From sequence record OR896831.1: DNA of 51,209 nucleotides. One strand, written 5' to 3'. Positions 32,316 through 50,208 of the stretch are shown here, piece after piece. The notes beneath the pieces are model-generated. The model was not told the DNA's origin, ran no database searches, and saw only the letters and a list, made by a program, of their open reading frames with translations. Every line of letters starts with the position of its first letter. Position 1 is the stretch's first letter. The stretch is from Escherichia phage BubbaBully. The translations under genes were made by a program, and so were the position numbers.

Positions 32316-33062
32316 ATGGCTAAAGACATTCTGGATAACTCAACAATCGACGGTATCGAGCAGGTTGATGAAATGGACTTTCACGAATTGCAGCACGGAA
32401 AATATTCAGATATAGCTCTGCGTTCGGGTGGTCATTACCAGGCCGTGAAGCCTTGCCAGTATTACAAGGTTACAGGCAACCGCTATGCTGGGAGCAAAAC
32501 TCCAGATGTTGTCCGTGACCTTTGGGCTACACCTCGCGATGTTGTTGCGTACATGGAGGAGCGCTACGGAAAATATGACCTTGACGCAGCAGCCAGCGAG
32601 GATAATAAGGTATGTGACAAATTCTACAGCAAGGAAACAAACTGCTTAAAGCGCTGGTGGGGAAGTAAAAAGCACGTATGGTTGAATCCTCCATACAGCA
32701 ATCCAGATCCGTTTGTGCTAAAGGCAATTGAGCAGATGGAGCACGATAATCAGATCGATATCTTGCTTGCAGCCGACAACTCAACAGCATGGTTTAGCGA
32801 CGCGCAGAAACACGCGGCGGAAATTATCTGGATCACTGGCGAAACCTGGAAAGATGAAGATGGGCGCGAGTATTCGCGAACCGGACGCCTAGCGTTTATT
32901 TCCGGTCTGACAGGTGAGCCAGTTAGCGGCAACAATAAAGGCAGCGTCATTTTCGTCATGCGCAAATTGAAAGAGGGCGAAACGCAACAAACTCACTACG
33001 TGAAAATCAGCGATATTTGCCCGTCAGTTAAAAACAAACGAGCCAAAGCAAGGAGCTTTTAA
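32316..33062 (+). CDS. dam: DNA N6-adenine methyltransferase (Dam-like)
   Basis: 248 aa with NPPY motif (WLNPPYS) characteristic of N6-adenine methyltransferases. Confidence 0.75.
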   Translation: MAKDILDNSTIDGIEQVDEMDFHELQHGKYSDIALRSGGHYQAVKPCQYYKVTGNRYAGSKTPDVVRDLWATPRDVVAYMEERYGKYDLDAAASEDNKVCDKFYSKETNCLKRWWGSKKHVWLNPPYSNPDPFVLKAIEQMEHDNQIDILLAADNSTAWFSDAQKHAAEIIWITGETWKDEDGREYSRTGRLAFISGLTGEPVSGNNKGSVIFVMRKLKEGETQQTHYVKISDICPSVKNKRAKARSF

Positions 33063-33172
33063 TGAAATATGATATTGCAGCACTTGGAATACTTTGTGCA
33101 TTCATGATCGTAGGTGGCTTTTGTTCTTATGCACTCCTGGCGTTAATCATCAAAATAGGGGAGTTGATCTAA
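33062..33172 (+). CDS. small hydrophobic protein (36 aa), not in ORF track
   Basis: ATG overlaps dam stop (TAATG) and its stop overlaps the next ATG (TAATG); one predicted TM helix. Confidence 0.35.
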   Translation: MKYDIAALGILCAFMIVGGFCSYALLALIIKIGELI

Positions 33173-33420
33173 TGAGTGAGAGAAATGTAGCACTAAACGA
33201 GGTTGGGTTATTCCTTCTGTATCGCGCTATGGTGTGCCAGGCTGTCGATCTAAACCCGCATATCAAGGATGCAATAGAGGTTGACCCGTGGGAGTTTTCC
33301 AGCGCCCTAGACATGAGCTTTGAGGAAACCGCAAAACTACCTCTTGAGAAGTGGCACATCAAGATTGCTGATGATCTCGATGAAATGTGGCAAGACCTTA
33401 AAAAGCGAACGGCTCACTAA
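33172..33420 (+). CDS. hypothetical protein
   Basis: Start at ATG 33172 (translational coupling); 82 aa. Confidence 0.5.
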   Translation: MSERNVALNEVGLFLLYRAMVCQAVDLNPHIKDAIEVDPWEFSSALDMSFEETAKLPLEKWHIKIADDLDEMWQDLKKRTAH

Positions 33421-33464
33421 ATAGCACTTTTTGTTAAAAATGCCCGGCGAAAGTCGGGCATAAT
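33421..33464 (+). promoter_or_regulatory. box promoter (box + hairpin + CATAAT)
   Basis: Box begins directly after TAA stop; stem GCCCGGC/GTCGGGC; -10 at 33459-33464. Confidence 0.55.
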
Positions 33465-33496
33465 CATTTCCAACGAAAACCACTGAGGAAAACGAA

Positions 33497-33706
33497 ATGA
33501 AAATCTACAGCAAAGCAGCTTTGGAAATCGCACAGCAAGCAGCACGCGAGGCGGTGGAGTTAGGGGTGAAAAACGGCGGTGATTTTGATTGGGGTATGGC
33601 TATGATCTGGCTGAAAATCGCAACCGGACACGCGCCAGTTTTCAAGTATGAGGAGCGCGGGATTCGCTCAATCGTAGCGGCTATGGAGGGCAAAGATGAA
33701 GGTTGA
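33497..33706 (+). CDS. hypothetical protein
   Basis: 69-aa ORF with CA-rich leader and GAGGA RBS. Confidence 0.5.
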   Translation: MKIYSKAALEIAQQAAREAVELGVKNGGDFDWGMAMIWLKIATGHAPVFKYEERGIRSIVAAMEGKDEG

Positions 33707-33944
33707 GCAAGGCCGCGAGGCCGTTTGGAATCACGCCAAAGAAACAGGAATGGCAGACGATATAGCACGAATTGCTAAAATATTTGATCTGGCTGATGTT
33801 AGTATTATCAGCAACGGGAAAATGACTTACTTACACGAGAGGCCGCGCAAAATGCACCGTGTGCCAGCAATCCCGACAAAAATCGACTTCAAAGAAGCAA
33901 TGGCAAAAATCAGAGAGCCGAAAAAGTATTACAAAGGAGAATAG
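33696..33944 (+). CDS. hypothetical protein (contains an in-frame copy of the box)
   Basis: 82-aa ORF; codons for IARIAK are the box sequence. Confidence 0.5.
   Translation: MKVEQGREAVWNHAKETGMADDIARIAKIFDLADVSIISNGKMTYLHERPRKMHRVPAIPTKIDFKEAMAKIREPKKYYKGE
33762..33805 (+). promoter_or_regulatory. intragenic box promoter (box + 22 bp + TG-n-TAGTAT)
   Basis: Exact box inside CDS 33696-33944 with extended -10 at 33797-33805. Confidence 0.45.
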
Positions 33945-33949
33945 TTATC

Positions 33950-34021
33950 ATGTGGCGCTTGCTTGTTCTTCCAATGCCCGTTATCATTGCCGCCGTTGTT
34001 ATGTACGCACTTGTTATGTAA
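33950..34021 (+). CDS. very small hydrophobic peptide (23 aa), not in ORF track
   Basis: ATG after AAAGGAGAA RBS; single hydrophobic stretch. Confidence 0.25.
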   Translation: MWRLLVLPMPVIIAAVVMYALVM

Positions 34022-34038
34022 TTTAAGAGGAAAAGTTA

Positions 34039-35157
34039 ATGATTCAGAAAATGACAGACCAGCAGTTTAAAGAAGCACGAGCAGAGGGCAAAACCTACAA
34101 GCAGATCGCGGAGGAGTTCGGCTTGAATGTTCGCACCGTTGAGCGCCGCGCGGCACGACTTGCCCGCCAAGGTGAAACTAACACGAAAGGCGCACCAGGT
34201 TTTGCGGTTGTTCGTGAGTCAGTCCTGACCCGCGCAAACGGCGAAGAAGTGATGCGCTGGACTATCACCAACAAAGATAAAGAGCAGTTGGAAGCGCTCA
34301 TGCAAGCCGCGATGGAGGCATTCGCTGAGGAAGTGCCACGCCTTGAGCCTCAGCCGGAAAGCCACAAAGACTACAGCGAAAGCCTTGCGCTATATCCGAT
34401 CTTTGATATGCACATTGGTGCAATGGCTCATAAGCACGAGTGCGGCGAGAATTGGGACACGGCAACCGCCGAGAAGGTCATGAATGACTTCTTTGATTAT
34501 GCTGTAGAGTGTGCGCCAAACAGCGAAAAGGCTGTGCTCCTGATTGGTGGCGATATGCTTCACAGTGACGGCCTTGAGGCTGTAACACCTGCTAGCGGTC
34601 ACGTTCTTGATCAGGATAGCCGCTATGCCAAACTGGTTTATGTCGCAATCCGAGCTACTCGTCGCGCTATCTCCTTGATGTTGACCAAACACAAAGAGAT
34701 TGAGGTTCAGGTTATCGAGGGCAATCATGACCAGTCAGGGATGATCTGGCTACGCGCAGCAATGGCGGCGGCATACGAGAACGAGCCACGCGTGACGGTT
34801 GATGTTTCTCCTCGCGTAGTGCATCACACGCAGTACGGAAAAACCTTCCTTGCTTATCACCACGGGCACACTGTGCGCAAGCCGGAGGCGTTGTTGATGA
34901 TGTGCGCGTCGGATTGGCGAGAGGACTTCGGGATCTCAAAATCAATGTATGCTCACGTTGGACATTGGCATCACCAGACCGTAACAGAAACCAGCCTGGG
35001 GATTGTTGAAGTTCACAGCACAATGGCGGCTAAAGATGCATATGCAGCTCGCGGAGGTTGGCGCTCTCGTCGTCGCGCGGCGGTTATCATCTACGACAAA
35101 GAGCACGGCGAGATCGGGCGCTTCATGTTCTACCCTGAAATGATGGAGTCAAAATAA
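34039..35157 (+). CDS. metallophosphoesterase (calcineurin-like) with N-terminal HTH-like region
   Basis: 372 aa; motifs DMH, GGDMLHSD, GNHD, HHGH; N-terminal KTYKQIAEEFGLNVRTVERR resembles an HTH. Confidence 0.65.
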   Translation: MIQKMTDQQFKEARAEGKTYKQIAEEFGLNVRTVERRAARLARQGETNTKGAPGFAVVRESVLTRANGEEVMRWTITNKDKEQLEALMQAAMEAFAEEVPRLEPQPESHKDYSESLALYPIFDMHIGAMAHKHECGENWDTATAEKVMNDFFDYAVECAPNSEKAVLLIGGDMLHSDGLEAVTPASGHVLDQDSRYAKLVYVAIRATRRAISLMLTKHKEIEVQVIEGNHDQSGMIWLRAAMAAAYENEPRVTVDVSPRVVHHTQYGKTFLAYHHGHTVRKPEALLMMCASDWREDFGISKSMYAHVGHWHHQTVTETSLGIVEVHSTMAAKDAYAARGGWRSRRRAAVIIYDKEHGEIGRFMFYPEMMESK

Positions 35158-35327
35158 TGAAAGTGAAATGCGTTGAGAATTCATCTAAAACACTGCCTTA
35201 CTACGAGGGCTTTGTGTACGAGGCTGAGCCATTGCCTGGCGGGATGTACAAGATTAAAGATGAATCAGGGCAGCATATCATTGCGCCGCTAAAAGGACAT
35301 TATCTGGAGTTTTTACAGATTGATTAA
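35157..35327 (+). CDS. small hypothetical protein (56 aa), not in ORF track
   Basis: ATG overlaps upstream stop (TAATG); open frame to TAA at 35325-35327; terminator follows. Confidence 0.4.
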   Translation: MKVKCVENSSKTLPYYEGFVYEAEPLPGGMYKIKDESGQHIIAPLKGHYLEFLQID

Positions 35328-35351
35328 CATTTAATTTCATAAGCTTACAAA

Positions 35352-35378
35352 GGGTTAGCATTTGCTAACCCTTTTTTT
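35352..35378 (+). terminator. intrinsic terminator upstream of lysis cassette
   Basis: GGGTTAGC/GCTAACCC stem followed by T7. Confidence 0.6.
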
Positions 35379-35454
35379 ATTGTTTTGTTTTTGCTCATTG
35401 ATGGTTAACATAAACTCGCTTAACTATTGACATTTGACACAAGGAGATCGGATT

Positions 35455-35670
35455 ATGAGAGAATTTTTAAACGCAGCAACTACAGGAACCGGAGGCGCAT
35501 CATTGACGGGAGCGGCGACGGGGCAAATGACAATCGCGGTTGCTGGTCTTATCCTAATGGCGGCTTTTGGTTTTTGGGGCGCTTATCTGCGCTGGAAGGA
35601 TAGCAAGGCGCTGCGAGAGGCTTTGGATCGTGAAGATATCAAAGAGGCAATTAGAATCAGGGGGAAATAA
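35455..35670 (+). CDS. holin (pinholin-like)
   Basis: 71 aa from ATG 35455 (AAGGAG RBS); two hydrophobic segments and charged C-terminus; immediately upstream of SAR endolysin. Confidence 0.6.
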
Positions 35671-35672
35671 TC

Positions 35673-36167
35673 ATGAGTTTACAGAGGAGCGCGGCATACG
35701 CTTTATTTGGCGCAGCGCTCTCGTTGACTCCTCCGCTCCTGGAGGAGATCGAGGGCATTCGCTACAAGCCATATAAAGATATCGCTGGAGTCTGGACGGT
35801 CTGCGCGGGTATTACCGGATCTGATGTTGTGCTGGGTAAGACGTACACGCAGAGAGAATGTGATGCACTTCTTGCCAAGCATATCGGGATTGCAAAGGCA
35901 GAAGTCGATAAGAGAGTGAAGGTTGAGATCCCGGACACAATGAGGGCGGCGATGTATAGCTTCACTTACAACGCTGGCACTGGAGCGTTTCGCAAGTCAA
36001 CCATGCTCAAGAAGATCAACAATGGTGATCTTTATGGAGCGTGCGACGAGCTTTGGAAATGGACGTATTATTACAATCCAAAAACGGGCAAGCGCGAGAA
36101 GTCCAAAGGACTAAAAAACCGTCGCGCGGTTGAGTACAAATATTGCACTAAGGATCTGAAAAAATGA
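35673..36167 (+). CDS. SAR endolysin (GH24 lysozyme)
   Basis: T4-lysozyme-like catalytic pattern EGxRxKxYxD...T; N-terminal weakly hydrophobic signal-anchor-release-like segment. Confidence 0.75.
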
Positions 36168-36559
36168 AACGATTAGCTTTGGCGGTACTGGTTGCCGCCT
36201 CTCTTTCTGGTTGTTCAGCGTCAAGCGCTCTGAGTGATCTTATCGGCAGCAAGCCGGAAATCACAGCACAGGCCGGATCCGAAAACGTAAAGCAGACAGT
36301 AGGCGTTACGGCTAAAAATGACGAGAGCAGCAAGCAGGAAAACACGATCAAGGATTCGCAGGTTGGAAAGGTTGACTCCTCCAACAAAAAGAAAGTGAGC
36401 ACATCAAGCATCCAGGCTGAGACAATCACAGCCGACAAGATCGAGATCAGAAACAGCGATAGTGATTTGTATGTGATGTTCTTTGCGCTGGCTTGCTTTT
36501 TTGTTGCTGGCTTTGCGGCTGGCGTTGTTTGGAATTGCAGAAAAAATAAAGGGGCATAA
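36164..36559 (+). CDS. unimolecular spanin
   Basis: 131 aa with N-terminal lipobox (LSGCS) and C-terminal transmembrane helix; last gene of lysis cassette. Confidence 0.65.
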
Positions 36560-36570
36560 TGCCCCTTTTT
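36551..36570. terminator. bidirectional terminator hairpin containing the spanin stop codon
   Basis: GGGGCA-taa-TGCCCC flanked by A-run and T-run. Confidence 0.6.
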
Positions 36571-36762
36571 CTATTCTAGGAGTCGGACGTTAATCAATAC
36601 TACGCCGTCCTCGTCGTGCAGATTGTGCTCCTTTGCTGGATTGGCTCTCATGTCGCTATACAGGATCAGGAGTAGCGCCGCAATCATTTCGTCATGCGAT
36701 ACCGAATTTACGGCGCAATGCTTCATAATCGCATCTATTAGATTTTGTGTTGAATAATTCAT
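36571..36762 (-). CDS. hypothetical protein (doubtful)
   Basis: 63-aa ORF overlapping the 3' end of the upstream ORF in another frame. Confidence 0.3.
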   Translation of the reverse strand: MNYSTQNLIDAIMKHCAVNSVSHDEMIAALLLILYSDMRANPAKEHNLHDEDGVVLINVRLLE

Positions 36763-37084
36763 CGTCGCTTAACTCGTCAAGATGAAACAGATCGTAAATG
36801 TATTTGTTGCTTTCACCTTCAAGGCTATACAACTCAAACCCAAACGGCCTCTTGCGCGAGCCTTTGCACGTCACCACGCCTTTATCTATCCCAAGATATC
36901 CCAATGTAGCCATTCGCGGTATAAACTCAAGAGAAACGCTTGAGGCGAATTTACGAGGCGTCATATTGGCGGCTCTCGCGAGCCGCTCACATTCTTTGTG
37001 CTTAAAAACAAATCTCGCTAAGTGCTGGCGATTAAACCAATCGTAACTTTCGCAAAACTTATACAGATCCAGCAGAAACATCAT
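36692..37084 (-). CDS. hypothetical protein
   Basis: 130-aa ORF immediately downstream of the P-loop NTPase gene. Confidence 0.45.
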   Translation of the reverse strand: MMFLLDLYKFCESYDWFNRQHLARFVFKHKECERLARAANMTPRKFASSVSLEFIPRMATLGYLGIDKGVVTCKGSRKRPFGFELYSLEGESNKYIYDLFHLDELSDDELFNTKSNRCDYEALRRKFGIA

Positions 37085-37087
37085 TTA

Positions 37088-38665
37088 TCACCCCATTAAA
37101 GCAGGATTCACAAATACGCGCCCATTTGTGAGGCATACGTAATTCAGATCTTCAAGGATTGGAAGCAAGTGCCCCTCAATTCGCTTCATTACGCCAGACT
37201 GACCCAAGAACGGACGAACCTTACGCACAGACTCATAAATAGCTCGCGCAGTGATAGCGCCTTTATTGGCCTTTCCGAGTCTGGTTATCGTGTCGATAAT
37301 CTTGATCAACTCTGCATCCTGACCAGCATGACCTGATGCGTTTGCCGCGCTAATGTAGGTCTTGCTCAACTCCTGGAACATCAAGAGAGCCTCCTGCATA
37401 GTCTCAACGTCAATCTCCCGTGACTTTGTGGCGGTTCCGTTAACGTCCTGCCAGTTTCGGATCGTGTGGATAACGGAGGCCAGGCGAATAACCTGCTTAT
37501 CCATTTTACCCAACGCACCACGTAGCATTGTGTGAGAATATTCTCCGCCGTCTGCTAGTTTTGGCTCCATTTCCTGACGAGCCATGTTTAGCACGCGCAT
37601 AGCGGAGCGGCTAACTTTCAATGAAACGGATTGCTCCATCATGATATTGTGGATCAGCTTGTAATAGTCTGCTTTAAGACCTGCATCAACTGGCGTATAA
37701 GTTGTGTCTCCGTTGTCGTCAACGAATTTACGGCGGCCTAAGAATGACTCCTCGCGAACCAGCAAGAAACGCTCCGAAACACCGATACCACGAGCGCCAG
37801 CCTCCATAATGCCGCTGATTGTCTCGTCCTGCGCAATCACAGCCATGCAACCAAGAGCCGTAAAGCTCATGTTGTTTTCTGCATTTGCACGGGAAATGGA
37901 AACGTGACCGCTATCCCAAGCCTTTAGCACCAATTCACTGTTAGTCTTTCGCTCGCTATTTGCGTAAGTCAGCCCGAGCAGTGAGTTTATACTGGTTGCC
38001 TCGTCCGAGATAACAGCAAAGTTACCCTGGCGGAAGTTGATTTTAGCCAAACCCTCTGGAGTTGTGTCTGAAACCGGAAACACAACGTCGCACAGCTTTG
38101 CGAGCTTTTCCTCGTACTCCTCTTTTTCCTCGTAAAGCGCAGCGTACTCAGTACCTGAGCGCTCTGATTTTAACTCCTTTGCAATGCCGTTGAGTTTTGA
38201 CTGAATCTTTTTGCGCTCTTTCTTGCGTTGCTCGTTGATGCGCTCAACCTCTGCAACAATCGGGGCAATCGCCATTGAGTTAATGGCTGATTTACCAGTT
38301 GAAGGAGGCTGGCTTGTCACAACGTACAGCGCCGTTGGCTGATCGGTTCCGTGGTATTCCACGGTAAATCGCCCGAGCATCGCGGCAGACACACAGCCTA
38401 CGAAATGCATGTAGGCAGATGAAACAGGGAATTGAACGGATTCCGCCAAGCTGCGAGACAGCTTTCCTACAACGTCGCAATCGTTGCCGAGGGAAATAAC
38501 AGGATACTTGTCATTTCCGCTGTTAATGTCTTTAACATCACCCCAAAAACCAGACGAGCGAGAGTAGCCGTTTGCCTGGATTGCAACCTTAACGGCGCTC
38601 AAGCCTTGAGCCTCAGCCGTTGAAATGATTTGTTGTGGTGTCAGCGTGGATTGTTCAAAAAACAT
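37088..38665 (-). CDS. P-loop NTPase of unknown function
   Basis: 525 aa; Walker A-like PPSTGKS and Walker B-like AVISDE; own box promoter. Confidence 0.6.
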   Translation of the reverse strand: MFFEQSTLTPQQIISTAEAQGLSAVKVAIQANGYSRSSGFWGDVKDINSGNDKYPVISLGNDCDVVGKLSRSLAESVQFPVSSAYMHFVGCVSAAMLGRFTVEYHGTDQPTALYVVTSQPPSTGKSAINSMAIAPIVAEVERINEQRKKERKKIQSKLNGIAKELKSERSGTEYAALYEEKEEYEEKLAKLCDVVFPVSDTTPEGLAKINFRQGNFAVISDEATSINSLLGLTYANSERKTNSELVLKAWDSGHVSISRANAENNMSFTALGCMAVIAQDETISGIMEAGARGIGVSERFLLVREESFLGRRKFVDDNGDTTYTPVDAGLKADYYKLIHNIMMEQSVSLKVSRSAMRVLNMARQEMEPKLADGGEYSHTMLRGALGKMDKQVIRLASVIHTIRNWQDVNGTATKSREIDVETMQEALLMFQELSKTYISAANASGHAGQDAELIKIIDTITRLGKANKGAITARAIYESVRKVRPFLGQSGVMKRIEGHLLPILEDLNYVCLTNGRVFVNPALMG

Positions 38666-38693
38666 CTTAAAGTCTCCTTGTTGGTTGACCCGT

Positions 38694-38737
38694 ATTATAG
38701 GTCAACCATCTTACAGCCTTTTAGCAATTCGTGCTAT
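38694..38737 (-). promoter_or_regulatory. box promoter (box + 22 bp + TATAAT in hairpin loop)
   Basis: Box 38719-38737 overlaps TAG stop of upstream gene; TATAAT 38694-38699 in loop of GGTTGACC/GGTCAACC. Confidence 0.55.
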
Positions 38738-38979
38738 TTTAAACGTTCAACTTTTGCAAGCAATCTTCCATCTACAATGCTATGGCACTCAAGAGTTTCT
38801 GGATCGAAGTCTAGCGATCGATGGAATGAGTGACCAATCAGCAGATATCCGCCGCGCTGCCTTACCTGATAAACCGTTTCTCCTACTGAGAAAAGCGATA
38901 TGTCGCTAAACGTCACACGGAATCGGTTTTGAGCCATGCTCTTTGGAATGTGTTTTGTGTACTCTACGCCTTGAATCAT
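38734..38979 (-). CDS. hypothetical protein
   Basis: 81-aa ORF, ATGA overlap with upstream gene. Confidence 0.5.
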   Translation of the reverse strand: MIQGVEYTKHIPKSMAQNRFRVTFSDISLFSVGETVYQVRQRGGYLLIGHSFHRSLDFDPETLECHSIVDGRLLAKVERLK

Positions 38980-39341
38980 GAGTATTTCGCCTCGAACAAG
39001 TAAGCCCCACCAGCAGAGAAACCAACCTCCTCGCGGTACAGAGTAAAGCGGTCTCCGTCCTCGTCAAACACATAACCTGCAACGCCACCCAGTACGCGCC
39101 CTTGCTCGATCTGGTAGCGCTTGCCAGCCTTAAACGTTTTCTTGTGCTTCATGCTATGGTCTACCCAAGTGCATTTAATTGTTTTGGTTTTGATTTCTCG
39201 GAAATCGTTAAAATTTGCGTGCTCCCACTTTGAGCCTTTGGTTAATTCCTTAACCTGGAAAGCTCCAGTTTCAAAGAATTGAATCTCGTCAACAATTCGA
39301 CCTTTCATTAGTTTATTGTCGGCGTTGCGGATAACTTTCAT
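38976..39341 (-). CDS. hypothetical protein
   Basis: 121-aa ORF. Confidence 0.5.
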   Translation of the reverse strand: MKVIRNADNKLMKGRIVDEIQFFETGAFQVKELTKGSKWEHANFNDFREIKTKTIKCTWVDHSMKHKKTFKAGKRYQIEQGRVLGGVAGYVFDEDGDRFTLYREEVGFSAGGAYLFEAKYS

Positions 39342-39523: not shown

Positions 39524-39553
39524 TTATTATCCTCAATTCGTTTCGTTGAGATA

Positions 39554-39597
39554 ATAATAGCGGATCTTATCGACCCGCTTTTAACAAAAAGTGCTAT
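39554..39597 (-). promoter_or_regulatory. box promoter (box + hairpin + TATTAT)
   Basis: Box 39579-39597 (- strand), stem AGCGG/CCGCT, -10 at 39554-39559. Confidence 0.55.
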
Positions 39598-42532: not shown

Positions 42533-42564
42533 GCACACCGAAATGAACAAACGGAGGTAAAACG

Positions 42565-42990: not shown

Positions 42991-42992
42991 TT

Positions 42993-43253
42993 ATGTGCAA
43001 CGAGAAAATCGATCAGCTTGTGGACGAAATCATTGAGACGCACGACCGCGCCGGATTCAACTCTATCTTTATGGTGTGCCCTGACGCGTGCGGCGTGACA
43101 GAAATCGAGCTTAAAGAAGCGGTTGAGCAGGTGGAGTCCGTGCTTCGAACCGATAACCCTGGTGACGAAATCTTTGCGGCCTTGACCGCTTGTGATGGTG
43201 GCGGAGTGTTTGCCCTTTCGTTTGTTAACGCAAACACGATCCTGACCATCTGA
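42993..43253 (+). CDS. small acidic early protein
   Basis: 86 aa, rich in Asp/Glu; second gene after the canonical early promoter. Confidence 0.5.
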   Translation: MCNEKIDQLVDEIIETHDRAGFNSIFMVCPDACGVTEIELKEAVEQVESVLRTDNPGDEIFAALTACDGGGVFALSFVNANTILTI

Positions 43254-43260
43254 TCGGTAA

Positions 43261-43304
43261 ATAGCACTTTTTGTTAAAAACGCCCCGCGCGAGTGGGGCA
43301 TAAT
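43261..43304 (+). promoter_or_regulatory. box promoter (box + hairpin + CATAAT)
   Basis: Box 43261-43279; stem GCCCC/GGGGC; -10 at 43299-43304. Confidence 0.55.
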
Positions 43305-43334
43305 GCACCCAACGAAACAACACGGAGAAATGAA

Positions 43335-43529
43335 ATGGCTATCAGATTCAACGCTGACTACCCAGGCTTTAAATCTGGCAAGACCTATCAGGCAAAATAT
43401 GCAGCGCACCCATTCTACGGCTACCTTGCAATCAAGGTTGTAGACGATGACGGCGACACGCGATACCTGGCGCTTAATCTGCTTGAGGACGGCTCAATCG
43501 TGGAGGTTGATGAAGATGAAGATCACTAA
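43335..43529 (+). CDS. small acidic protein
   Basis: Start at ATG 43335 after GGAGA RBS; 64 aa ending VEVDEDEDH. Confidence 0.45.
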   Translation: MAIRFNADYPGFKSGKTYQAKYAAHPFYGYLAIKVVDDDGDTRYLALNLLEDGSIVEVDEDEDH

Positions 43530-43866
43530 TCAAGCGCGAAACTATGCATTGAAGCACGGAGTGCATGTCTACGGACTGACAAACGAGCAAAGCCGCGCCC
43601 TGGTTTTCTACGATATCGCCAGCGGCACAAAGCTATGCACTTACAAGAGCTACAGCGATGATAACCCATTGCAGAAGTCGCTCAACTACAAGATGAAGCC
43701 GGAAACCTGGCAAGCGATGCCGGATGATATCCGCACGGCTCAGGGTGTGCAGAAAGCAATTGAGGCGATGGTTGCAACTGGCACGGCTCGACTGCTGGAC
43801 GAGGACGAGCTAGCGGAAGCACGCAACAAGATCCTCAAGCGGTCAACGGGAGTTGAGATCCTATGA
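43516..43866 (+). CDS. hypothetical protein
   Basis: Start at ATG 43516, 8 nt after GGAGG; 116 aa. Confidence 0.5.
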   Translation: MKITNQARNYALKHGVHVYGLTNEQSRALVFYDIASGTKLCTYKSYSDDNPLQKSLNYKMKPETWQAMPDDIRTAQGVQKAIEAMVATGTARLLDEDELAEARNKILKRSTGVEIL

Positions 43867-43958
43867 GCAACTTCCACAACGAGCACGTCATGCAGTGGTG
43901 GCGGCATCGCGTAAAGAATTTCGAACTGTATCGCCACGAGTGGAAATTTAGCGAATAG
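43863..43958 (+). CDS. small basic protein (31 aa), not in ORF track
   Basis: ATGA overlap with upstream stop; TAG stop lies inside the next box. Confidence 0.3.
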   Translation: MSNFHNEHVMQWWRHRVKNFELYRHEWKFSE

Positions 43959-43998
43959 CACGAATTGCTAAAAACTTGATCGGGTGTGCTGGTATAGT
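43955..43998 (+). promoter_or_regulatory. box promoter (box + 22 bp + TG-n-TATAGT in hairpin loop)
   Basis: Box 43955-43973; TATAGT 43993-43998 inside GGGTGT/ACACCC hairpin. Confidence 0.55.
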
Positions 43999-44030
43999 AC
44001 ACCCATCAACAACGAACCAAGGACTTAACA

Positions 44031-44198
44031 ATGAAATCTCGTAAATATCGCAACATCTTCAACAACCTGGCCTACTGGCTGGAGGACGGAGCTGTAATGG
44101 TTAGCAACGGCGAGCAAACAAAGAAATCGCTGTTAAGCGCAGAGGAGTTTTTCATTGCGGTCGCTCGTGACATTCTGGTGCTGATCGAGGAGGAATAA
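44031..44198 (+). CDS. small acidic protein (55 aa), not in ORF track
   Basis: ATG after CA-rich leader and AAGGA RBS; ends 3 nt before next ATG. Confidence 0.4.
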   Translation: MKSRKYRNIFNNLAYWLEDGAVMVSNGEQTKKSLLSAEEFFIAVARDILVLIEEE

Positions 44199-44201
44199 TA
44201 C

Positions 44202-44444
44202 ATGCTTTCAATTCGCAACTGGTTTATGCGTTTCATCGGAAAAGAGGTTGAGGCTTTCGGGATCAACATTCCGGCAAACTTCAAGCGCGCTTGCCCTGGA
44301 AACGCGGCTGGTGTGTATTGGGAAATGCCGGACGGCACATACTGGTTCACAATTTGCTCAGGATACAAGATGGAAGTAAGCCAGCGAGACTATGAGCGCG
44401 GAACATTCTTTAAAGCAATGCAAGAAATCGGGGAGGAGTTTTGA
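44202..44444 (+). CDS. hypothetical protein
   Basis: 80-aa ORF. Confidence 0.5.
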   Translation: MLSIRNWFMRFIGKEVEAFGINIPANFKRACPGNAAGVYWEMPDGTYWFTICSGYKMEVSQRDYERGTFFKAMQEIGEEF

Positions 44445-44611
44445 AGTTCTATCGCAACCCAACGATTCACGGACTGATTTACTTTATCAAGGACGGTAAA
44501 GCTATGTACTTTCCTGCTGGTTCGCCTTGGACTGAGGCTGAGGAATCAGGGCTAACTGCTCAGCAACTGCAACTAGGAATTATCTCAGGCGTATTTGTGG
44601 AGGCTAACTAA
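44441..44611 (+). CDS. possible small protein (TTG start at 44441 or ATG at 44504), not in ORF track
   Basis: Open frame fills the 166-bp gap and ends in TAATG overlap with the next gene; start codon uncertain. Confidence 0.25.
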   Translation: MKFYRNPTIHGLIYFIKDGKAMYFPAGSPWTEAEESGLTAQQLQLGIISGVFVEAN

Positions 44612-45147
44612 TGATTAAATTTGAGCTTTGGGGTCACACATACCATCTGCGCGGCACTTATGGTGTCGCAATTGTAGACCTGGACGGCACACTATCGGAC
44701 GGCACGCATCGCTTGCACTTGCTGCCAACGAAAGACCTGCACCTAACTGAAAGCTGGAGCGAGTTTAACAGGGCGGCGCAGAATGACGCGCCAATCCAGG
44801 ATACGATTGATATCGTCAACGCACTTTGGAAGGCGGGAATGGGCGTGGTTATCCTGACTGGTCGCAGTGACGAGGTTGAAACAGACACTATCCTTTGGCT
44901 AGACCGCCACAAGGTGAAATATGACTGGCTTATCATGCGCCGCTCCGAGGATAACCGCAAGGACACAGTTATCAAAGAAGAGGTGTTGCGTGCAATCGGT
45001 CTGCAGTACATTACGTGCGCCTTTGATGATTCGCCAAACGTGATCAAGCATTTCCGCAGCCTGGGGGTTACGACCTATCAGGTAACGGAATACGACAAGC
45101 CGCACGCTAGTTTGCAGAGTCACGGCGTGGAGGAGTTGAGCAAATGA
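44611..45147 (+). CDS. HAD-superfamily phosphatase (polynucleotide-kinase-phosphatase-like)
   Basis: 178 aa with DxDGT motif (VDLDGTL) near N-terminus. Confidence 0.6.
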   Translation: MIKFELWGHTYHLRGTYGVAIVDLDGTLSDGTHRLHLLPTKDLHLTESWSEFNRAAQNDAPIQDTIDIVNALWKAGMGVVILTGRSDEVETDTILWLDRHKVKYDWLIMRRSEDNRKDTVIKEEVLRAIGLQYITCAFDDSPNVIKHFRSLGVTTYQVTEYDKPHASLQSHGVEELSK

Positions 45148-45359
45148 TTATCACGCACAACGTAGAGCCGAGCGCAAACACCGCACAGGATATGATTGCT
45201 GGAATGCCGCCAAAATCGCACAGAATGGTGCGTGTGTGGGGATTTCAGGGCAATGTAAGCCAAACGCTCAAGGAAATTTTAGCCCTGCCAGAAGTCGATG
45301 CAGCGCTTGTGGGGGTGCATACAAATGAATATGTTTCTTTCCACATCGTGACAAAATAG
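45144..45359 (+). CDS. hypothetical protein
   Basis: 71-aa ORF; TAG stop inside the next box. Confidence 0.45.
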   Translation: MIITHNVEPSANTAQDMIAGMPPKSHRMVRVWGFQGNVSQTLKEILALPEVDAALVGVHTNEYVSFHIVTK

Positions 45360-45399
45360 CACGAATTGCTAAAACGCGCTCCGAGAGGGGCGCTATAAT
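45356..45399 (+). promoter_or_regulatory. box promoter (box + hairpin + TATAAT)
   Basis: Box 45356-45374; imperfect stem GCGCTCC/GGGGCGC; TATAAT 45394-45399. Confidence 0.55.
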
Positions 45400-45430
45400 G
45401 CACCCATACCAACCAACGAGGGAAAACAAA

Positions 45431-45664
45431 ATGCGAGCAAAGATTAAAGCAACTGGCGGCTACACCGGAATGAAAAACGTCAAGCTTCCGCTGACACTAA
45501 AAGCGGTTTCCAGTGGTTATGGCACGGTCGATGTTAGCCTTGCCGAGTTGATTTATCACGGCTACGACTTTGCAGCAGGACAGGCAGACGAGATCCCGGA
45601 CTGCGAATTTAATTCTCAGACACTGACTTTCATTATTGGCGTAGAGGCGGAGATTGTAGAATGA
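45431..45664 (+). CDS. hypothetical protein
   Basis: Start at ATG 45431 after GAGGGAAAA RBS; 77 aa. Confidence 0.45.
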   Translation: MRAKIKATGGYTGMKNVKLPLTLKAVSSGYGTVDVSLAELIYHGYDFAAGQADEIPDCEFNSQTLTFIIGVEAEIVE

Positions 45665-45894
45665 AATATCAGATCTTTAAGGCAGTAGACAAAATCGACG
45701 GCGAGCTTTCACTTTTCCTCTTTGACGAGGAGAACGGCTACACAGTCATTGACTATTCACCGGAAATGATGGGGCGCTTGATTAGTGATATCAAGGCTGG
45801 CGGCAGTTGCCACTGGAGCGATAACGAAGGAGAAACTTCGCGCCGTGATGATATGCTTGATGCGGTCTTAATGTGTGAGTTCGAGGCTGAATAA
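45661..45894 (+). CDS. small acidic protein
   Basis: 77-aa ORF, ATGA overlap. Confidence 0.45.
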   Translation: MKYQIFKAVDKIDGELSLFLFDEENGYTVIDYSPEMMGRLISDIKAGGSCHWSDNEGETSRRDDMLDAVLMCEFEAE

Positions 45895-46085
45895 TGAAGT
45901 GCATCCGGTCAACATACGATCTATTCAAGGCGGGTGAAAGTTACCCGCTCATTGAGAAAGGCCAGGTCGGGCGGTTCACGGTATACGAATACACCGACGT
46001 GCAAGGTTGGGTTTATACTTTCGGACTCGACGAGAACGGAGAGAACGAAACAGACGGCAATTTCATGAAGTTTACAAAGGAGTAA
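45894..46085 (+). CDS. hypothetical protein
   Basis: 63-aa ORF, TAATG overlap. Confidence 0.45.
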   Translation: MKCIRSTYDLFKAGESYPLIEKGQVGRFTVYEYTDVQGWVYTFGLDENGENETDGNFMKFTKE

Positions 46086-46146
46086 CACAATGATTGAGAA
46101 CAAATTCAGCGGCAACAAAGACGACGCAGAGATCACAGAGTTCTAA

Positions 46147-46191
46147 ATAGCACTTTTTGCTAAAGACTTTCCGCAAGGCCATTGGTATAGT
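46147..46191 (+). promoter_or_regulatory. box promoter (box + 23 bp + TG-n-TATAGT in hairpin loop)
   Basis: Box ATAGCACTTTTTGCTAAAG 46147-46165; TATAGT 46186-46191 within AAGGCCA/TGGCCTT hairpin. Confidence 0.55.
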
Positions 46192-46229
46192 GGCCTTATT
46201 GAAAGCAACCACGCAAACAGGAGATAAAA

Positions 46230-46385
46230 ATGCGTAACTTTGAGAAAATCCGCACCAACAAAGACCGCCGCGCCGCTGGTGAGATTGTGGACTCACACCG
46301 TCGCCGCAAGAAAACTCAAAAACGCGGTAGTGCGGCAAAGCGCATGGATTGGGATCAACTTCAAACTAACTACAGGTCTAAATAA
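46230..46385 (+). CDS. small basic protein (51 aa), not in ORF track
   Basis: ATG after CAGGAGA RBS; Arg/Lys-rich; TAATG overlap with next gene. Confidence 0.4.
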   Translation: MRNFEKIRTNKDRRAAGEIVDSHRRRKKTQKRGSAAKRMDWDQLQTNYRSK

Positions 46386-46573
46386 TGTTTACACTACGTG
46401 ACCACAGCGAATTGCAGGGCAAAACGGCGGAGTACCTCCGCCAACTTGCAGACGACATAGAGAGCGGTAAAGTGTGCGTTGACCGCATGACCATCGAATC
46501 ATCAATCGAATGGTTCAAGATCGAGAAGCGCGAAATCATCATTAACACAATGGAGGCAACTGACAATGAGTAA
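46385..46573 (+). CDS. hypothetical protein
   Basis: 62-aa ORF. Confidence 0.45.
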   Translation: MFTLRDHSELQGKTAEYLRQLADDIESGKVCVDRMTIESSIEWFKIEKREIIINTMEATDNE

Positions 46574-47135
46574 AAAGGTTATTATTCTCAACGCTCCACC
46601 AGGTGCAGGTAAAGACACCATCGGAAATCTGATTTGCAAGCACGCGCCGCGATACGTTGTTAAGCGCTCATTCAAAGAGCCGATGTTTAAGATCGCTAAG
46701 GCAATGCTGGGCGATTATCGTTTCGGCCTGTTTATGCAAGCGTATGAAGACAGGGAGCAGAAAGAAAAAGCGCAACCTTTCCTGAATGGTAAATCACCTC
46801 GCCAGTTTATGATCTGGATTAGCGAGGATGTGATAAAACCTCAGTTTGGGGATCAGTATTTCGGCGTAGTCATGGCTGAGGCGGTGCGAGATAGTCAAGT
46901 TCCGGTTGTTATCACTGACGGCGGTTTTCCTGATGAAGTCAAGCCACTGGTCAGTGCAGGGATTCAGGTAAACATTTGCCGCCTACATCGAGACGGATAC
47001 ACGTTTGATGGTGATAGCCGGAATTACCTAAACCTTGAGGGCTACCATCACCGAATCGTGACGCGAGATTACATTCTTGTGCATGGCGATCCGATGCATA
47101 CCGTAGACCATATTTGTGAGGATGTTCTCAAATGA
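46566..47135 (+). CDS. dNMP-kinase-like P-loop kinase
   Basis: 189 aa; N-terminus KKVIILNAPPGAGKDT resembles the T4 gp1 deoxynucleotide monophosphate kinase P-loop (recollection). Confidence 0.55.
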   Translation: MSKKVIILNAPPGAGKDTIGNLICKHAPRYVVKRSFKEPMFKIAKAMLGDYRFGLFMQAYEDREQKEKAQPFLNGKSPRQFMIWISEDVIKPQFGDQYFGVVMAEAVRDSQVPVVITDGGFPDEVKPLVSAGIQVNICRLHRDGYTFDGDSRNYLNLEGYHHRIVTRDYILVHGDPMHTVDHICEDVLK

Positions 47136-47235
47136 TATCAACGCCGCAAGATCCGAAAGAGCCTTTCAACGCGCACAAGGCGCTAATGGTTCTACTGACC
47201 ATCATGATAATCGGTTACACTGTAAGGGGTATTTT

Positions 47236-47433
47236 ATGGCTGGTAACACACTGAAAACTATCGGCGCAGTCCTGTTAATCGTTGGCGGCTCACTGCTTAC
47301 TGAGCCAGGTTTCTTTAACTCAGTAGGCACATTTGCGGTGTTGTGTGGCGGTCTTATCGGCGGCTACATGGACGGCAGGAGAGCTGGGCGGCGCGAGGCT
47401 TTCGGCGGTGAAGATAAAAATCCGATAAAATAG
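47236..47433 (+). CDS. small membrane protein
   Basis: Start at ATG 47236 (AAGGGG RBS) within track ORF 47116-47433; two hydrophobic segments. Confidence 0.4.
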   Translation: MAGNTLKTIGAVLLIVGGSLLTEPGFFNSVGTFAVLCGGLIGGYMDGRRAGRREAFGGEDKNPIK

Positions 47434-47473
47434 CACGAATTGCTAAAACTTCCGCGAGGGCATTTGGTATAGT
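47430..47473 (+). promoter_or_regulatory. box promoter (box + 22 bp + TG-n-TATAGT in hairpin loop)
   Basis: Box 47430-47448 overlapping TAG stop; TATAGT 47468-47473 within GAGGGCA/TGCCCTC hairpin. Confidence 0.55.
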
Positions 47474-47515
47474 GCCCTCATTGAAGCAAAGCAACCAATC
47501 AAAGGAGATAACGAA

Positions 47516-47794
47516 ATGGCTACTATCCGCAAACACCTTGTAAACGCATTCGAAAACGTAGGCAAGGAGTATGGCTGGGATGATGGACTGAAAACACCGT
47601 ACACGGCACGCCGCCAGGGATTCAACTCTTTGAGAGAATGGGCGCGTTGCATGGCTGCAAACTACATGCCTGAAAATCATATTCTCATGCCGGATTCGCT
47701 GCTAGAAATGATCGAAGATGCACAGCGAGCAGGTATTCCACTGACTCAACATGATTTCGACGCATACGCAGAGGAGGAAGTAAACGCATGGTGA
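47516..47794 (+). CDS. hypothetical protein
   Basis: 92-aa ORF with AAAGGAGA RBS. Confidence 0.5.
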   Translation: MATIRKHLVNAFENVGKEYGWDDGLKTPYTARRQGFNSLREWARCMAANYMPENHILMPDSLLEMIEDAQRAGIPLTQHDFDAYAEEEVNAW

Positions 47795-48000
47795 GCGACA
47801 AGCCGGAATCGGTCAAAATCCGCACTGATTATGACGGCTCGCCGTGGATTAAGGCCGGAAAGGTTTACGACGCAACGCTTGAGAAATCGGGCAAGTTTGC
47901 AGGGTGTTACAAAGCTGGTGGGGAATTGGGTTCCCCATTTTACACAAGGCTGAAAAATTCAGTTCACTTAAACGGTAAAGATTGGGAGATTGTAGAATGA
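47788..48000 (+). CDS. hypothetical protein
   Basis: 70-aa ORF. Confidence 0.45.
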   Translation: MVSDKPESVKIRTDYDGSPWIKAGKVYDATLEKSGKFAGCYKAGGELGSPFYTRLKNSVHLNGKDWEIVE

Positions 48001-48611
48001 AATATGTAAAACCAACGACAAGCGGTTTCGGTTACACGGCTGGCAAACTATATCAGATCCTGTTGACCTATGAGGGCGGTCAATTTGTTGTTAAGAACGA
48101 CAAAGGGGTTAATCAGATTATTCGCGGCGACGGCAAGCCGTCATTACGGTTAGAGCGTGGCGGAAAGTTTGAGATTGTGGATATTCCAGAACCTGGCGAG
48201 GCTCAAGAGTACGCAGTTGAAACAGCAAAAAAGACAAGCGAGGCTCTACGCGAGCACGTCAAAGGGATTGTGAAAGATTCTATTGTTAGCGCGGCGTTGC
48301 CTGGTGGCGTGCTTCATAAGGCAGTAAGCGAAAGCGATCACTTGCGAGCAGTGCGCCAAATCGCAGCAAACGCAACAGAGCTTGCAAGCGAGATTGCATC
48401 AGGTCGATATGATGCAAGTCTCTATATGAGACTTGAAAAGGCAGAACGCGAGGCGGAGCAGCACAAAGCGGATTGCATCAAAGCGGAAGCAATTGTTGAT
48501 CAGCTTTATGACATATTCCCGCAGGTGCGCAATCCAGAGCAATTGATTGCAGCAGTTCGCAGTTCGAAAATCTTTGCTGATGCGTTTTTGGAACTGCAAA
48601 AGGTTAAATAG
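47997..48611 (+). CDS. hypothetical protein
   Basis: Start at ATG 47997 overlapping upstream stop; 204 aa. Confidence 0.5.
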   Translation: MKYVKPTTSGFGYTAGKLYQILLTYEGGQFVVKNDKGVNQIIRGDGKPSLRLERGGKFEIVDIPEPGEAQEYAVETAKKTSEALREHVKGIVKDSIVSAALPGGVLHKAVSESDHLRAVRQIAANATELASEIASGRYDASLYMRLEKAEREAEQHKADCIKAEAIVDQLYDIFPQVRNPEQLIAAVRSSKIFADAFLELQKVK

Positions 48612-48651
48612 CACTTTTTGTTAAAGCTTCCGCGAGGACATTTGTTAAAGT
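48608..48651 (+). promoter_or_regulatory. box promoter (box + 22 bp + TAAAGT in hairpin loop)
   Basis: Box 48608-48626 overlapping TAG stop; TAAAGT 48646-48651 within GAGGACA/TGTCCTC hairpin. Confidence 0.5.
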
Positions 48652-48685
48652 GTCCTCATTGAAGCGAAACACGGAGATTTAGGAA

Positions 48686-48895
48686 ATGGCTGTATACACT
48701 GGCAAGATGTTTGAAAGCGAAAACCCGATTTACGGCGGCACTTATGAGCTAATCATTGATGAAGATCGCGTAATTCTGGCTGATGACTATAACCAAGAAT
48801 ATTACGAAGTAGAAGCCGATAAATGGGATGACGACGTTATGTTTCTTGTTGATAATAGCCGCATCAAGTTTTATGCAGTGGAGGAAGAAGAATGA
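48686..48895 (+). CDS. small highly acidic protein
   Basis: 69 aa, Asp/Glu-rich, ends VEEEE. Confidence 0.5.
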   Translation: MAVYTGKMFESENPIYGGTYELIIDEDRVILADDYNQEYYEVEADKWDDDVMFLVDNSRIKFYAVEEEE

Positions 48896-49143
48896 TCACA
48901 ATTAACCTATCAGAAGAACAAGCGAAATCATTGTTGCGCGGCCTGGGCTGGCGAATGGGTAGCGGTAGCGAGGCGGTTGTAAACATCAAAGAGGAAGTAG
49001 CAAGAGAGCTTTTTGCACAGCTTGAGCATAAACTGATGCCAGCCTCAACAAGCGCGGCGGAGCTTGCTGTGTGGCGGCATGAAAACGGCCTTAATGAAAT
49101 GGATGTTGAGAAGTGGAAGCGTAAAAACGAGGTGATGAAATGA
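48892..49143 (+). CDS. hypothetical protein
   Basis: 83-aa ORF, ATGA overlap. Confidence 0.45.
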   Translation: MITINLSEEQAKSLLRGLGWRMGSGSEAVVNIKEEVARELFAQLEHKLMPASTSAAELAVWRHENGLNEMDVEKWKRKNEVMK

Positions 49144-49478
49144 TTTATATTCATAGCTACGGTGTCGGCAAGTTTGGCAACAAACAGATCCGAAATATTC
49201 ACGACACGCTCGATGAAGCAATGGCACAGCAACGCGTTTTAGGTGGAGTGGTTAAGGCGTTTGAGTCAGTGGAAAACTTAGAAAGCGAATGGATGGAGCG
49301 CGAGCACATAAAGGATTTGATTGTTGATGAGGTGTCATGCCTGATTGACGATCTCACAACTGACGCGCCAGGCTCGCCGCGAAACTATGAGCATGGTTCG
49401 TCTCAGTGGGATAGCTGGAAGGTTAAAACGCTTAACAACCTCCGCAATATCCTTGATGGAAAATTTAACGAAATTTAA
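49140..49478 (+). CDS. hypothetical protein
   Basis: 112-aa ORF, ATGA overlap. Confidence 0.5.
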   Translation: MIYIHSYGVGKFGNKQIRNIHDTLDEAMAQQRVLGGVVKAFESVENLESEWMEREHIKDLIVDEVSCLIDDLTTDAPGSPRNYEHGSSQWDSWKVKTLNNLRNILDGKFNEI

Positions 49479-49516
49479 TAGTGTTTAAAGCGCCTCAGAG
49501 CGATTATAGGAGGCGC
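49478..49516 (+). promoter_or_regulatory. degenerate (internally deleted) box with hairpin carrying a TATAG element
   Basis: ATAG-TGTTTAAAG resembles the box with about 7 nt missing; stem GCGCCTC/GAGGCGC 49490-49516 with TTATAG in loop. Confidence 0.3.
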
Positions 49517-49537
49517 AAAAATCGGAGGTGCGATTGC

Positions 49538-49666
49538 ATGGATAACTACGAAAAACCGTCTCAGTGGTGCGCACGTAAGCAGGAGGAGGCACTTGAGCGC
49601 GGCGACCAGAAAGCAGCTTTAAACTATTTCCAGATGTTCCAACTTTGGCAGAGCAGAGGGCTATAA
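49538..49666 (+). CDS. small hypothetical protein (42 aa)
   Basis: Start at ATG 49538 after GGAGG RBS, inside alt-start track ORF 49481-49666. Confidence 0.3.
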   Translation: MDNYEKPSQWCARKQEEALERGDQKAALNYFQMFQLWQSRGL

Positions 49667-49667
49667 A

Positions 49668-49898
49668 ATGTTCGGATTGAATGAGGCAGAATTCAACATT
49701 GTAAAACGTGCGACAAAAGACTGCGTAAACGAGATCGCTGATCGCATTGAGCAGAAGGACGAGAAATATGATCACATCGCGGCTGGCATTATCTGCAAAC
49801 ACTATCAGCCAGTTAGCACTCTATTAACAAAAACGCAATTTATTTGGCTTGCCGGATACCTGAGAGGGCGCTGGGGAAAGAATTTTGACAGAGAATGA
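49668..49898 (+). CDS. hypothetical protein
   Basis: 76-aa ORF. Confidence 0.45.
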   Translation: MFGLNEAEFNIVKRATKDCVNEIADRIEQKDEKYDHIAAGIICKHYQPVSTLLTKTQFIWLAGYLRGRWGKNFDRE

Positions 49899-50040
49899 TT
49901 GACGTCATGCGCCTGATTGGTTAACCTAAACCTCGTAAACATAAGAGGCTCATTCGAGCAACGCGCCAGGCGATACTGGCAACCACAGCGCCGCGCTGGT
50001 TGTTCAACCGTAAGACGCGGCGTTTTTACAGGAGAAAGCA

Positions 50041-50208
50041 ATGAAACGATATCCAGAAGAAACAGCCAAAGTGACTATCATCGTGGAACGAAACGGCGTA
50101 AAGACTCGCTACAAAAAACGATTCAAGAAAGGCGAGGCAATGCTAGGCCGAATCTCTGATTTCATGATCAAGATTCAAGAGGATAAGCCAGATGAAATGG
50201 AAGGTTAA
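50041..50208 (+). CDS. small basic protein (55 aa), not in ORF track
   Basis: ATG after strong RBS CAGGAGAAAGCA (same 20-nt context as the ssb start); overlaps the next ORF start. Confidence 0.4.
   Translation: MKRYPEETAKVTIIVERNGVKTRYKKRFKKGEAMLGRISDFMIKIQEDKPDEMEG

Follow-up and report, generated by a model that had tools for sequence, protein, structure and literature searches.

The bacteriophage T4 gene stp takes its name from its ability to suppress the three-prime-phosphatase defect of this phage. Its product acts as an inhibitor of EcoprrI, a type IC restriction enzyme, and thereby unmasks PrrC, the tRNA-Lys anticodon nuclease (PMC12707154; PMC3014915). The 18 N-proximal residues of T4 Stp are critical and loss-of-function mutations cluster at residues 4-14; deletion of eight C-terminal codons lowers both activities no more than moderately, and this dispensable end of the peptide varies from one T-even phage to another (PMC3014915). 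Here, we describe nine short open reading frames (ORFs) of Escherichia phage BubbaBully, one of which encodes a homolog of Stp. The window that was analyzed is the complete 51,209-bp genome of this phage, and the frames are located between positions 33062 and 50208. Judged from a comparison of related sequences, they are very probably short protein-coding units of dense early and accessory regions, comprising seven conserved genes, one orphan and one stump of a deleted gene.

BubbaBully (CPL00172) is listed as Drexlerviridae, Henuseptimavirus in the Citizen Phage Library paper (PMC10893117). In a megablast search, positions 33000-50300 matched T1-like siphoviruses of Henuseptimavirus (Drexlerviridae, Tempevirinae), with a nucleotide identity of 84-90%; the relatives matched were JohannLBurckhardt, AS5, IsaakIselin, Henu7 and Samwise.

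Results

Nine short frames with translation signals fall below the ORF length cut-off

The initial annotation had pointed to at least nine plausible small genes missing from the ORF track. All nine frames are present, with the start and stop codons and the lengths that were claimed (in order of position 36, 23, 56, 31, 55, 56 from a TTG start, 18, 51, and 55 amino acids; Table 1). Their absence from the track would be explained by their length, as all nine, with 18-56 codons, are shorter than the 60 amino acids that form the default cut-off of a mechanical ORF list. The frame at 33062 is also hidden because the longest-ORF start rule let a neighboring ORF cover it: the mechanical ORF at 33094-33420 (TTG start, 108 amino acids) overextends the true 82-amino-acid gene (ATG at 33172) across this candidate.

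Good ribosome-binding sites had been claimed for the frames, and a Shine-Dalgarno (SD) motif, defined as a match of at least 4 nucleotides (nt) to the AAGGAGG core at 4-10 nt upstream of the start, was indeed found for nine out of nine candidates, whereas only 14% of the background set, 288 ORFs with 18-59 amino acids in the 32-51 kb region, have one. This places the set of frames far from chance. The claimed coupling overlaps were recovered as well (TAATG at 33062 and 35157, and ATGA at 43863). A TTGA overlap is present at 44441, and both 44441-44611 and 46230-46385 have a TAATG overlap at their 3' end. The frames would be translated from their own SD sites or via coupling to the upstream gene.

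That gene density leaves little non-coding DNA in this part of the genome largely holds. The gaps of approximately 70-90 nt that are left in the 42.5-50.6 kb block once the candidates are counted as genes each contain one copy of a promoter-like repeat, and the 38-nt gap 45360-45397 also carries one. No copy was found in the 59-nt gap 49479-49537 or the 142-nt gap 49899-50040 of this block.

Seven frames are conserved in related phages

Conservation in related phages had been suggested as a check on the frames. We searched the nine peptides against nine related loci with tblastn, read the homologous frames to their stops, and determined the ratio of non-synonymous to synonymous changes (pN/pS) from codon-aligned comparisons of the homologous frames. 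Seven of the nine frames (33062, 33950, 35157, 43863, 44031, 46230, and 50041) are intact in 7-9 relatives and retain the ATG and the SD motif. Third codon positions hold most of the variable sites in all seven, with pN/pS values of 0.24 (33062), 0.46 (33950), 0.37 (35157), 0.36 (43863), 0.41 (44031), 0.38 (46230), and 0.21 (50041). With intact frames, conserved starts and SD motifs, and an excess of synonymous changes in up to 12 related genomes, the expectation that several of the frames are real is supported. The remaining two fared differently: 44441-44611 is a lineage-restricted orphan with two synonymous differences, and 46090-46146 is a deletion remnant. The products of the conserved seven would comprise two single-helix membrane peptides, a DUF7244 protein, the homolog of T4 Stp, two proteins of no assigned function (44031 and 50041), and a basic protein that resembles T7 gp1.1.

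An exact-sequence look-up identified GenBank proteins in the BubbaBully record for seven of the nine frames, all but those at 33950 and 46090. The accession and locus-tag numbering of the record would seem to have no free slot for either of these, with none for 46090-46146 from WWD12663 to WWD12669 and none for 33950-34021 from CDS0045 to CDS0050. In the Henuseptimavirus genomes JohannLBurckhardt, IsaakIselin, AS5, and Samwise, coding sequences (CDSs) labeled "hypothetical protein" are the positional and sequence orthologs of the 33062, 35157, 44031, 46230, and 50041 frames; these records mostly omit the Stp-like ORF and the 33950-34021 ORF. The Henu7 RefSeq record lacks nearly all of these small CDSs, and holds 67 features compared to 87-96 in the other relatives.

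Table 1. Small genes, a neighboring phosphatase gene and promoter-like repeats in the BubbaBully genome (amino acids, aa).
Feature	Position	Strand	Product length (aa)	Context and family	GenBank protein
Single-pass membrane peptide	33062-33172	+	36	Start overlaps Dam methylase stop (TAATG), stop overlaps ATG at 33172	WWD12630.1
Hydrophobic micro-protein, MWRLLVLPMPVIIAAVVMYALVM	33950-34021	+	23	Directly upstream of phosphoesterase/"DNA repair exonuclease" gene 34039-35157	
DUF7244 protein	35157-35327	+	56	TAATG-coupled to phosphoesterase gene	WWD12635.1
Further conserved ORF	40990-41091	-	33	97% identical to annotated AS5 CDS; pN/pS 0.13 in four relatives	
Stp-like peptide gene	43863-43958	+	31	PF08133, phrog_6763; ATGA overlap with upstream gene	WWD12660.1
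Gene of no assigned function	44031-44198	+	55	First gene after promoter-like element (43955)	WWD12661.1
Orphan ORF, TTG start	44441-44611	+	56	Fills insertion of approximately 167 nt between 80-aa gene and phosphatase gene	WWD12663.1
Stand-alone Pnkp-type 3'-phosphatase (HAD)	44611-45147	+		PF25109 HAD_PNKP, 75 bits; 650 bp downstream of Stp-like gene	
Remnant of 76-aa DUF7274 (PF23939) gene	46090-46146	+	18	SD motif, ATG, first 9 and last 8-9 codons kept	
Highly basic protein	46230-46385	+	51	First gene after promoter-like element (46147); TAATG to next gene	WWD12669.1
Extra small gene, C-terminal hydrophobic helix	47132-47254	+	40	Overlaps stop of P-loop NTPase gene	
Gene of no assigned function	50041-50208	+	55	17-nt overlap with next gene 50192-50377	WWD12681.1
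Promoter-like repeat copies	1569+, 5815-, 9530-, 28965+, 31457+, 31976+, 33421+, 33762+, 38720-, 39580-, 40973-, 41899-, 43261+, 43955+, 45356+, 46147+, 47430+, 48608+				

A homolog of T4 Stp lies close to a Pnkp-type phosphatase gene

The frame at 43863-43958 had been left without an identity in the initial annotation, and its product is a homolog of T4 Stp by its matches to Pfam and PHROG profiles. For PF08133, DUF7244 and Phage_1_1, family membership was judged by the Pfam gathering score. The peptide matches PF08133 (Nuclease_act) with 33.9 bits (cut-off 25; E-value 2.8e-08) over residues 1-18, and phrog_6763 with an E-value of 2e-11; the product name of WWD12660.1 in GenBank is "activator of host PrrC lysyl-tRNA endonuclease." In a comparison with the T4 stp sequence, taken from MT984581.1, residues 1-11 are identical and 13 of the 18 residues of the N-proximal segment are shared. 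Within residues 4-14, 9 of the 11 positions are identical and the sole changes, F12W and Y13W, replace one aromatic residue with another. The BubbaBully peptide is five residues longer than T4 Stp (31 compared to 26 amino acids) and its C-terminus diverges, as C-termini do among T-even phages.

Six relatives carry a 26-amino-acid Stp allele, in which six out of six variable nucleotides are synonymous, and the 31-amino-acid allele is common to BubbaBully, Enterobacter phage N5822 and a Logan contig. By tblastn, Stp-like ORFs were identified in 752 phage records, mostly of T4-like phages. About one fifth of the sampled Stp-like rows represent siphoviruses of approximately 40-50 kb (such as Tls, Skate, seszw, and TanjaMuster_Bas81), where the ORF is usually unannotated or named by PHROG transfer. 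No work on Stp in Drexlerviridae was found in the searched literature; a literature search for activators of host PrrC yielded a single paper, which concerns a Mosigvirus peptide.

The product of the downstream gene 44611-45147 has matches in the PDB that are limited to phosphatase domains, namely those of Pnkp1 (4xrp) and T4 Pnkp (5uj0; 1ltq residues 242-298), and no kinase domain was found in it in Pfam and PDB searches. We considered the P-loop NTPase encoded at 46566-47135 as the kinase half of a split Pnkp, but rejected it, as it has no Pfam hit and nothing meaningful in the PDB. In relatives, the homolog of 44611-45147 is named "polynucleotide kinase," a public product name that looks inaccurate.

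Tempevirinae share a conserved frame for a probable 23-residue membrane peptide

The peptide encoded at 33950-34021 has a grand average of hydropathy (GRAVY) of 2.1. Full-length homologs are present in 141 of the 50,697 phage records that make up the collection searched, always just upstream of the phosphoesterase gene. The frame is open in each of 12 diverse Tempevirinae, which represent several genera, with a pN/pS of 0.36 and 12, 5, and 18 variable sites at the first, second and third codon position, respectively; the other two frames contain 6 and 3 stops in these 12 genomes. A near-invariant core, WRL..LP.P.IIA, is found across genera, and some phages start the homolog five codons earlier (MRIVIMWRL...). 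In a small number of relatives it is annotated, under the name hypothetical protein. The protein collection lacks the exact sequence of the BubbaBully peptide, and its gene appears to be absent from the public annotation of this phage. From these comparisons we read 33950-34021 as encoding a real membrane micro-protein.

The frame was also considered as an N-terminal extension or frameshift partner of the "DNA repair exonuclease"; this was rejected, as the corresponding CDS of phage tonijn starts upstream in another frame, which is stopped in BubbaBully. In Pfam, the product of 34039-35157 itself matches only an N-terminal helix-turn-helix/sigma-70 region 4 (residues 13-46, 27.9 bits), and no metallophosphatase domain was found in it at an E-value of 0.01 or lower.

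Two peculiarities of the database records emerged from these searches. The record of Enterobacter phage N5822 (MW032452.1) is a 78-kb "circular" sequence in which many genes are split compared to relatives, including those for the helicase and the phosphoesterase as well as several small ones, and holds two places that match the 33950-34021 peptide; the split genes and the doubled match suggest that the assembly is concatenated or that errors arose in sequencing or assembly. In addition, 17-19 unverified "Campylobacter jejuni phage" records (MG0656xx) are T1-like Tempevirinae genomes with a homolog of 33950-34021, and their host labels look doubtful.

A probable orphan gene and a deletion stump

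Through its TTG start, 44441-44611 overlaps the stop of the upstream gene (TTGA), and at its 3' end a TAATG joins its stop to the ATG of the phosphatase gene. The insertion that it fills is missing from all close relatives, where the gene for the 80-amino-acid product joins the phosphatase gene directly. No DNA or protein match was found in the 50,697 phage records with blastn and tblastn. Among 5.8 billion protein clusters, the only match is the cluster of the protein itself, which consists of WWD12663.1 and one 68-amino-acid variant from a different start call. Three Logan metagenome contigs carry the ORF with 0-2 nucleotide differences, both at synonymous third positions, and the gene upstream of the cassette is only 85% identical in these contigs. 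A profile comparison with the 44031-44198 family gave an hhalign probability of 73%, and BLASTP of the product against that of 44031-44198 gave no alignment. The alignment with the 44031-44198 product and the GenBank call both support TTG as the start codon. The ORF would represent a recently acquired orphan cassette, possibly a distant paralog of 44031-44198.

At 46090-46146, the alignment shows an in-frame gap of 171 nt (57 internal codons) and a 1-nt insertion, by which the stop falls one codon earlier. Ten phage records cover the whole query, and each of them matches it in two pieces approximately 370 nt apart, which indicates that these records keep the full DUF7274 gene. A Logan contig that shares the 44441-44611 cassette also has the intact 76-amino-acid gene, and the deletion is unique to the BubbaBully genome. 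The frame is a gene remnant, less likely an assembly error, and not an independent small gene. The decaying stump may still yield a peptide of 18 residues, of no likely function.

Other conserved small genes

The product of 33062-33172 is hydrophobic, as had been noted (GRAVY 1.73). The frame is preceded by AAGGAG 6 nt upstream and intact in 7 relatives with 72-92% amino acid identity, and homologs are annotated in relatives. The product of 35157-35327 matches PF23896 (DUF7244) with 98.1 bits (cut-off 27), residues 1-56 aligning to positions 1-57 of the 57-position profile, and is thus a full-length member of the family; it also matches phrog_4788 (E-value 1.5e-19), and its frame is intact in 9 relatives. 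The product of 44031-44198 matches phrog_18792 (E-value 4.8e-12) and is intact in 7 relatives with 58-100% amino acid identity. For 50041-50208, the match is to phrog_6666 (E-value 3.2e-28); identity is 75-100% in 7 relatives, and the identical protein is encoded on 156 contigs.

The basic character claimed for the product of 46230-46385 is evident from its net charge of +11. It matches PF08200 (Phage_1_1) with 23.6 bits, a marginal pass of the cut-off of 21 (E-value 7.1e-05, residues 1-39). The frame is intact in 8 relatives, with a pN/pS of 0.38 over all pairs and 0.18 for BubbaBully against the relatives. With tblastn, relatives were found in 12 records with genomes of 48-78 kb, Drexlerviridae where classified.

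The initial annotation left out at least one further small gene, 47132-47254, which is intact in six relatives (pN/pS 0.39) and homologous to annotated CDSs in JohannLBurckhardt (67% identity) and PaulSarasin. The conserved minus-strand ORF at 40990-41091 is likewise not among the nine frames. A counterpart of the 30-amino-acid CDS of AS5, at 42430-42519, has an internal stop in BubbaBully and was rejected as a gene.

A repeated promoter-like element

The sequence ATAGCAC-(TTTT|GAAT)-TG(C/T)TAAA is present in eighteen exact copies in the whole genome, compared to a chance expectation of 0.05. All copies in the 32-51 kb region share the coding strand of the gene block that surrounds them. Most copies are followed approximately 20 nt further by a variable inverted repeat that encloses a -10-like hexamer (CATAAT, TATAAT, or TATAGT), after which come an SD motif and the ATG of the next gene. 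At approximately 22 nt, the spacing between TTGCTA and the -10-like hexamer exceeds that of a canonical sigma-70 promoter. In roughly 400 phage records, conservation of the copy that follows 46090-46146 is approximately 92%, even where the identity of the coding DNA is approximately 76%.

Discussion

Several observations weigh against the reading of the nine frames as coding units. The support for all nine comes from comparative sequence analysis. In a control over every small ORF of the region, from which phage N5822 was excluded (many frameshift-split genes), some antisense frames of real genes also had a low pN/pS. We dropped the ratio as a stand-alone coding test; it counts for the candidates because these are located in gaps between genes and not within longer genes. 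The frame at 33950, with its 23 codons, has few informative sites. For 44441-44611, there is no family match in Pfam or PHROG and almost no comparative signal, the single-sequence AlphaFold2 model of its product is uninformative (predicted local distance difference test, pLDDT, 52.5), and the SD motif is only a short 4 nt away from the TTG. Short ORFs are also plentiful (342 of at least 20 amino acids in 19 kb), a frame of 56 codons is open by chance in roughly 7% of frames, and the frames at 44441 and 46090 show little or no independent conservation, as would fit chance open stretches in non-coding spacers without a protein product. Such an origin is nevertheless very improbable for the set as a whole, given the SD motifs that precede every candidate, three candidates that score above curated Pfam cut-offs, and true non-coding spacers (approximately 70-90 nt) that are filled by a different, recognizable repeated element. 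For the seven frames that stay intact, keep their starts and change mostly at synonymous sites in relatives down to approximately 50-75% amino acid identity, chance is already refuted by conservation. A second alternative concerns 33950-34021, whose conservation could reflect a regulatory role, as a leader or upstream ORF that sets translation or transcription of the phosphoesterase gene 17 nt downstream, and not a functional peptide. The frame is very short, lies directly upstream of 34039-35157 in every genome examined, and is in a region that some annotations fold into the phosphoesterase CDS. However, the peptide sequence itself is conserved, through synonymous and conservative hydrophobic changes and with a core shared across genera, in a manner that a leader serving only translation would not impose, and both the spacing and the sequence from its stop to the downstream ATG vary. 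We consider a leader function improbable, and favor a membrane micro-protein.

The third alternative, in which 44441-44611 is filler DNA from illegitimate recombination that happens to be open, would fit the lack of any homolog beyond near-identical copies in phage genomes and protein clusters, as well as the missing family match, the low pLDDT and the start signals mentioned above. Filler DNA would not, however, readily account for an ORF that spans the insertion exactly, from TTGA to TAATG, with the coupling to the phosphatase gene kept, or for nucleotide differences in other contigs that are confined to two synonymous sites. Moreover, the cassette occurs in backgrounds with a diverged upstream gene, has a weak profile link to the 44031-44198 family, and was predicted by two independent gene callers. 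We regard filler as rather unlikely and 44441-44611 as an orphan gene that is probable but unproven.

As for function, the Stp homolog would most likely act early in infection by binding and blocking the type IC restriction enzymes of the host, and the Pnkp-type 3'-phosphatase may help to heal RNA ends cut by a PrrC-type nuclease that is freed by this blocking. As stp owes its name to suppression of the T4 3'-phosphatase defect, the proximity of the two genes is suggestive. It is possible, and we propose it tentatively, that the Stp-like peptide and the 3'-phosphatase together form a counter-defense module with which T1-like siphoviruses oppose type IC restriction systems and the PrrC-type anticodon nucleases embedded in them, a module that evolved or was exchanged independently of T4 Stp/Pnkp/Rnl1, with the two C-terminal alleles of the genus as adaptations to different host restriction complexes; and, separately, that the 33950-34021 peptide is a functional lysis or late-region micro-protein. 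The link between Stp and the phosphatase is weakened by two negative results: no RNA ligase is annotated in the closely related JohannLBurckhardt genome, and the nearby P-loop protein is not tied to polynucleotide kinase by Pfam or PDB.

Overall, the finding of these genes is correct but ordinary: these small phage genes are known ones that a length threshold had hidden, and public annotation, including the Stp label, already covers seven of the nine. It does show that a cut-off of 60 codons conceals at least 10 real genes in a 19-kb stretch of BubbaBully, among them the gene for the Stp-like peptide, whose T4 homolog has a known role in phage-host conflict, and a membrane peptide of 23 residues that is conserved across Tempevirinae and usually unannotated. 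Stp homologs are widespread in T1-like siphoviruses, and here one is found beside a Pnkp-type phosphatase. The stump and the orphan cassette illustrate how small accessory genes continue to be gained and lost between promoter-like repeats.

Compared to other phages, the product of 46230-46385 is, like T7 gp1.1, a small and strongly basic early-region protein, with a likeness that is marginal and at the level of the profile; no pairwise match to it was found in T7-like phages at an E-value of 0.1 or lower with tblastn, where the low-complexity filter may hide weak matches. The stump at 46090-46146 keeps only 18 of the 76 residues of DUF7274. The architecture of the promoter-like repeats recalls the promoter-early stem-loops of T4-type phages, which mediate the shuffling of modules (PMC2839356). 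T4 Stp is encoded by a T4-like myovirus, whereas BubbaBully is a 51-kb siphovirus of Drexlerviridae, and stp is located between ndd and ac in T4, whereas its neighbors in BubbaBully are different. T4 also encodes a repair pair of Pnkp and RNA ligase 1, of which BubbaBully has a phosphatase-domain protein only, in a setting unlike that of T4. This T4-type genomic setting belongs to the T4 system, and not to the Stp peptide family.

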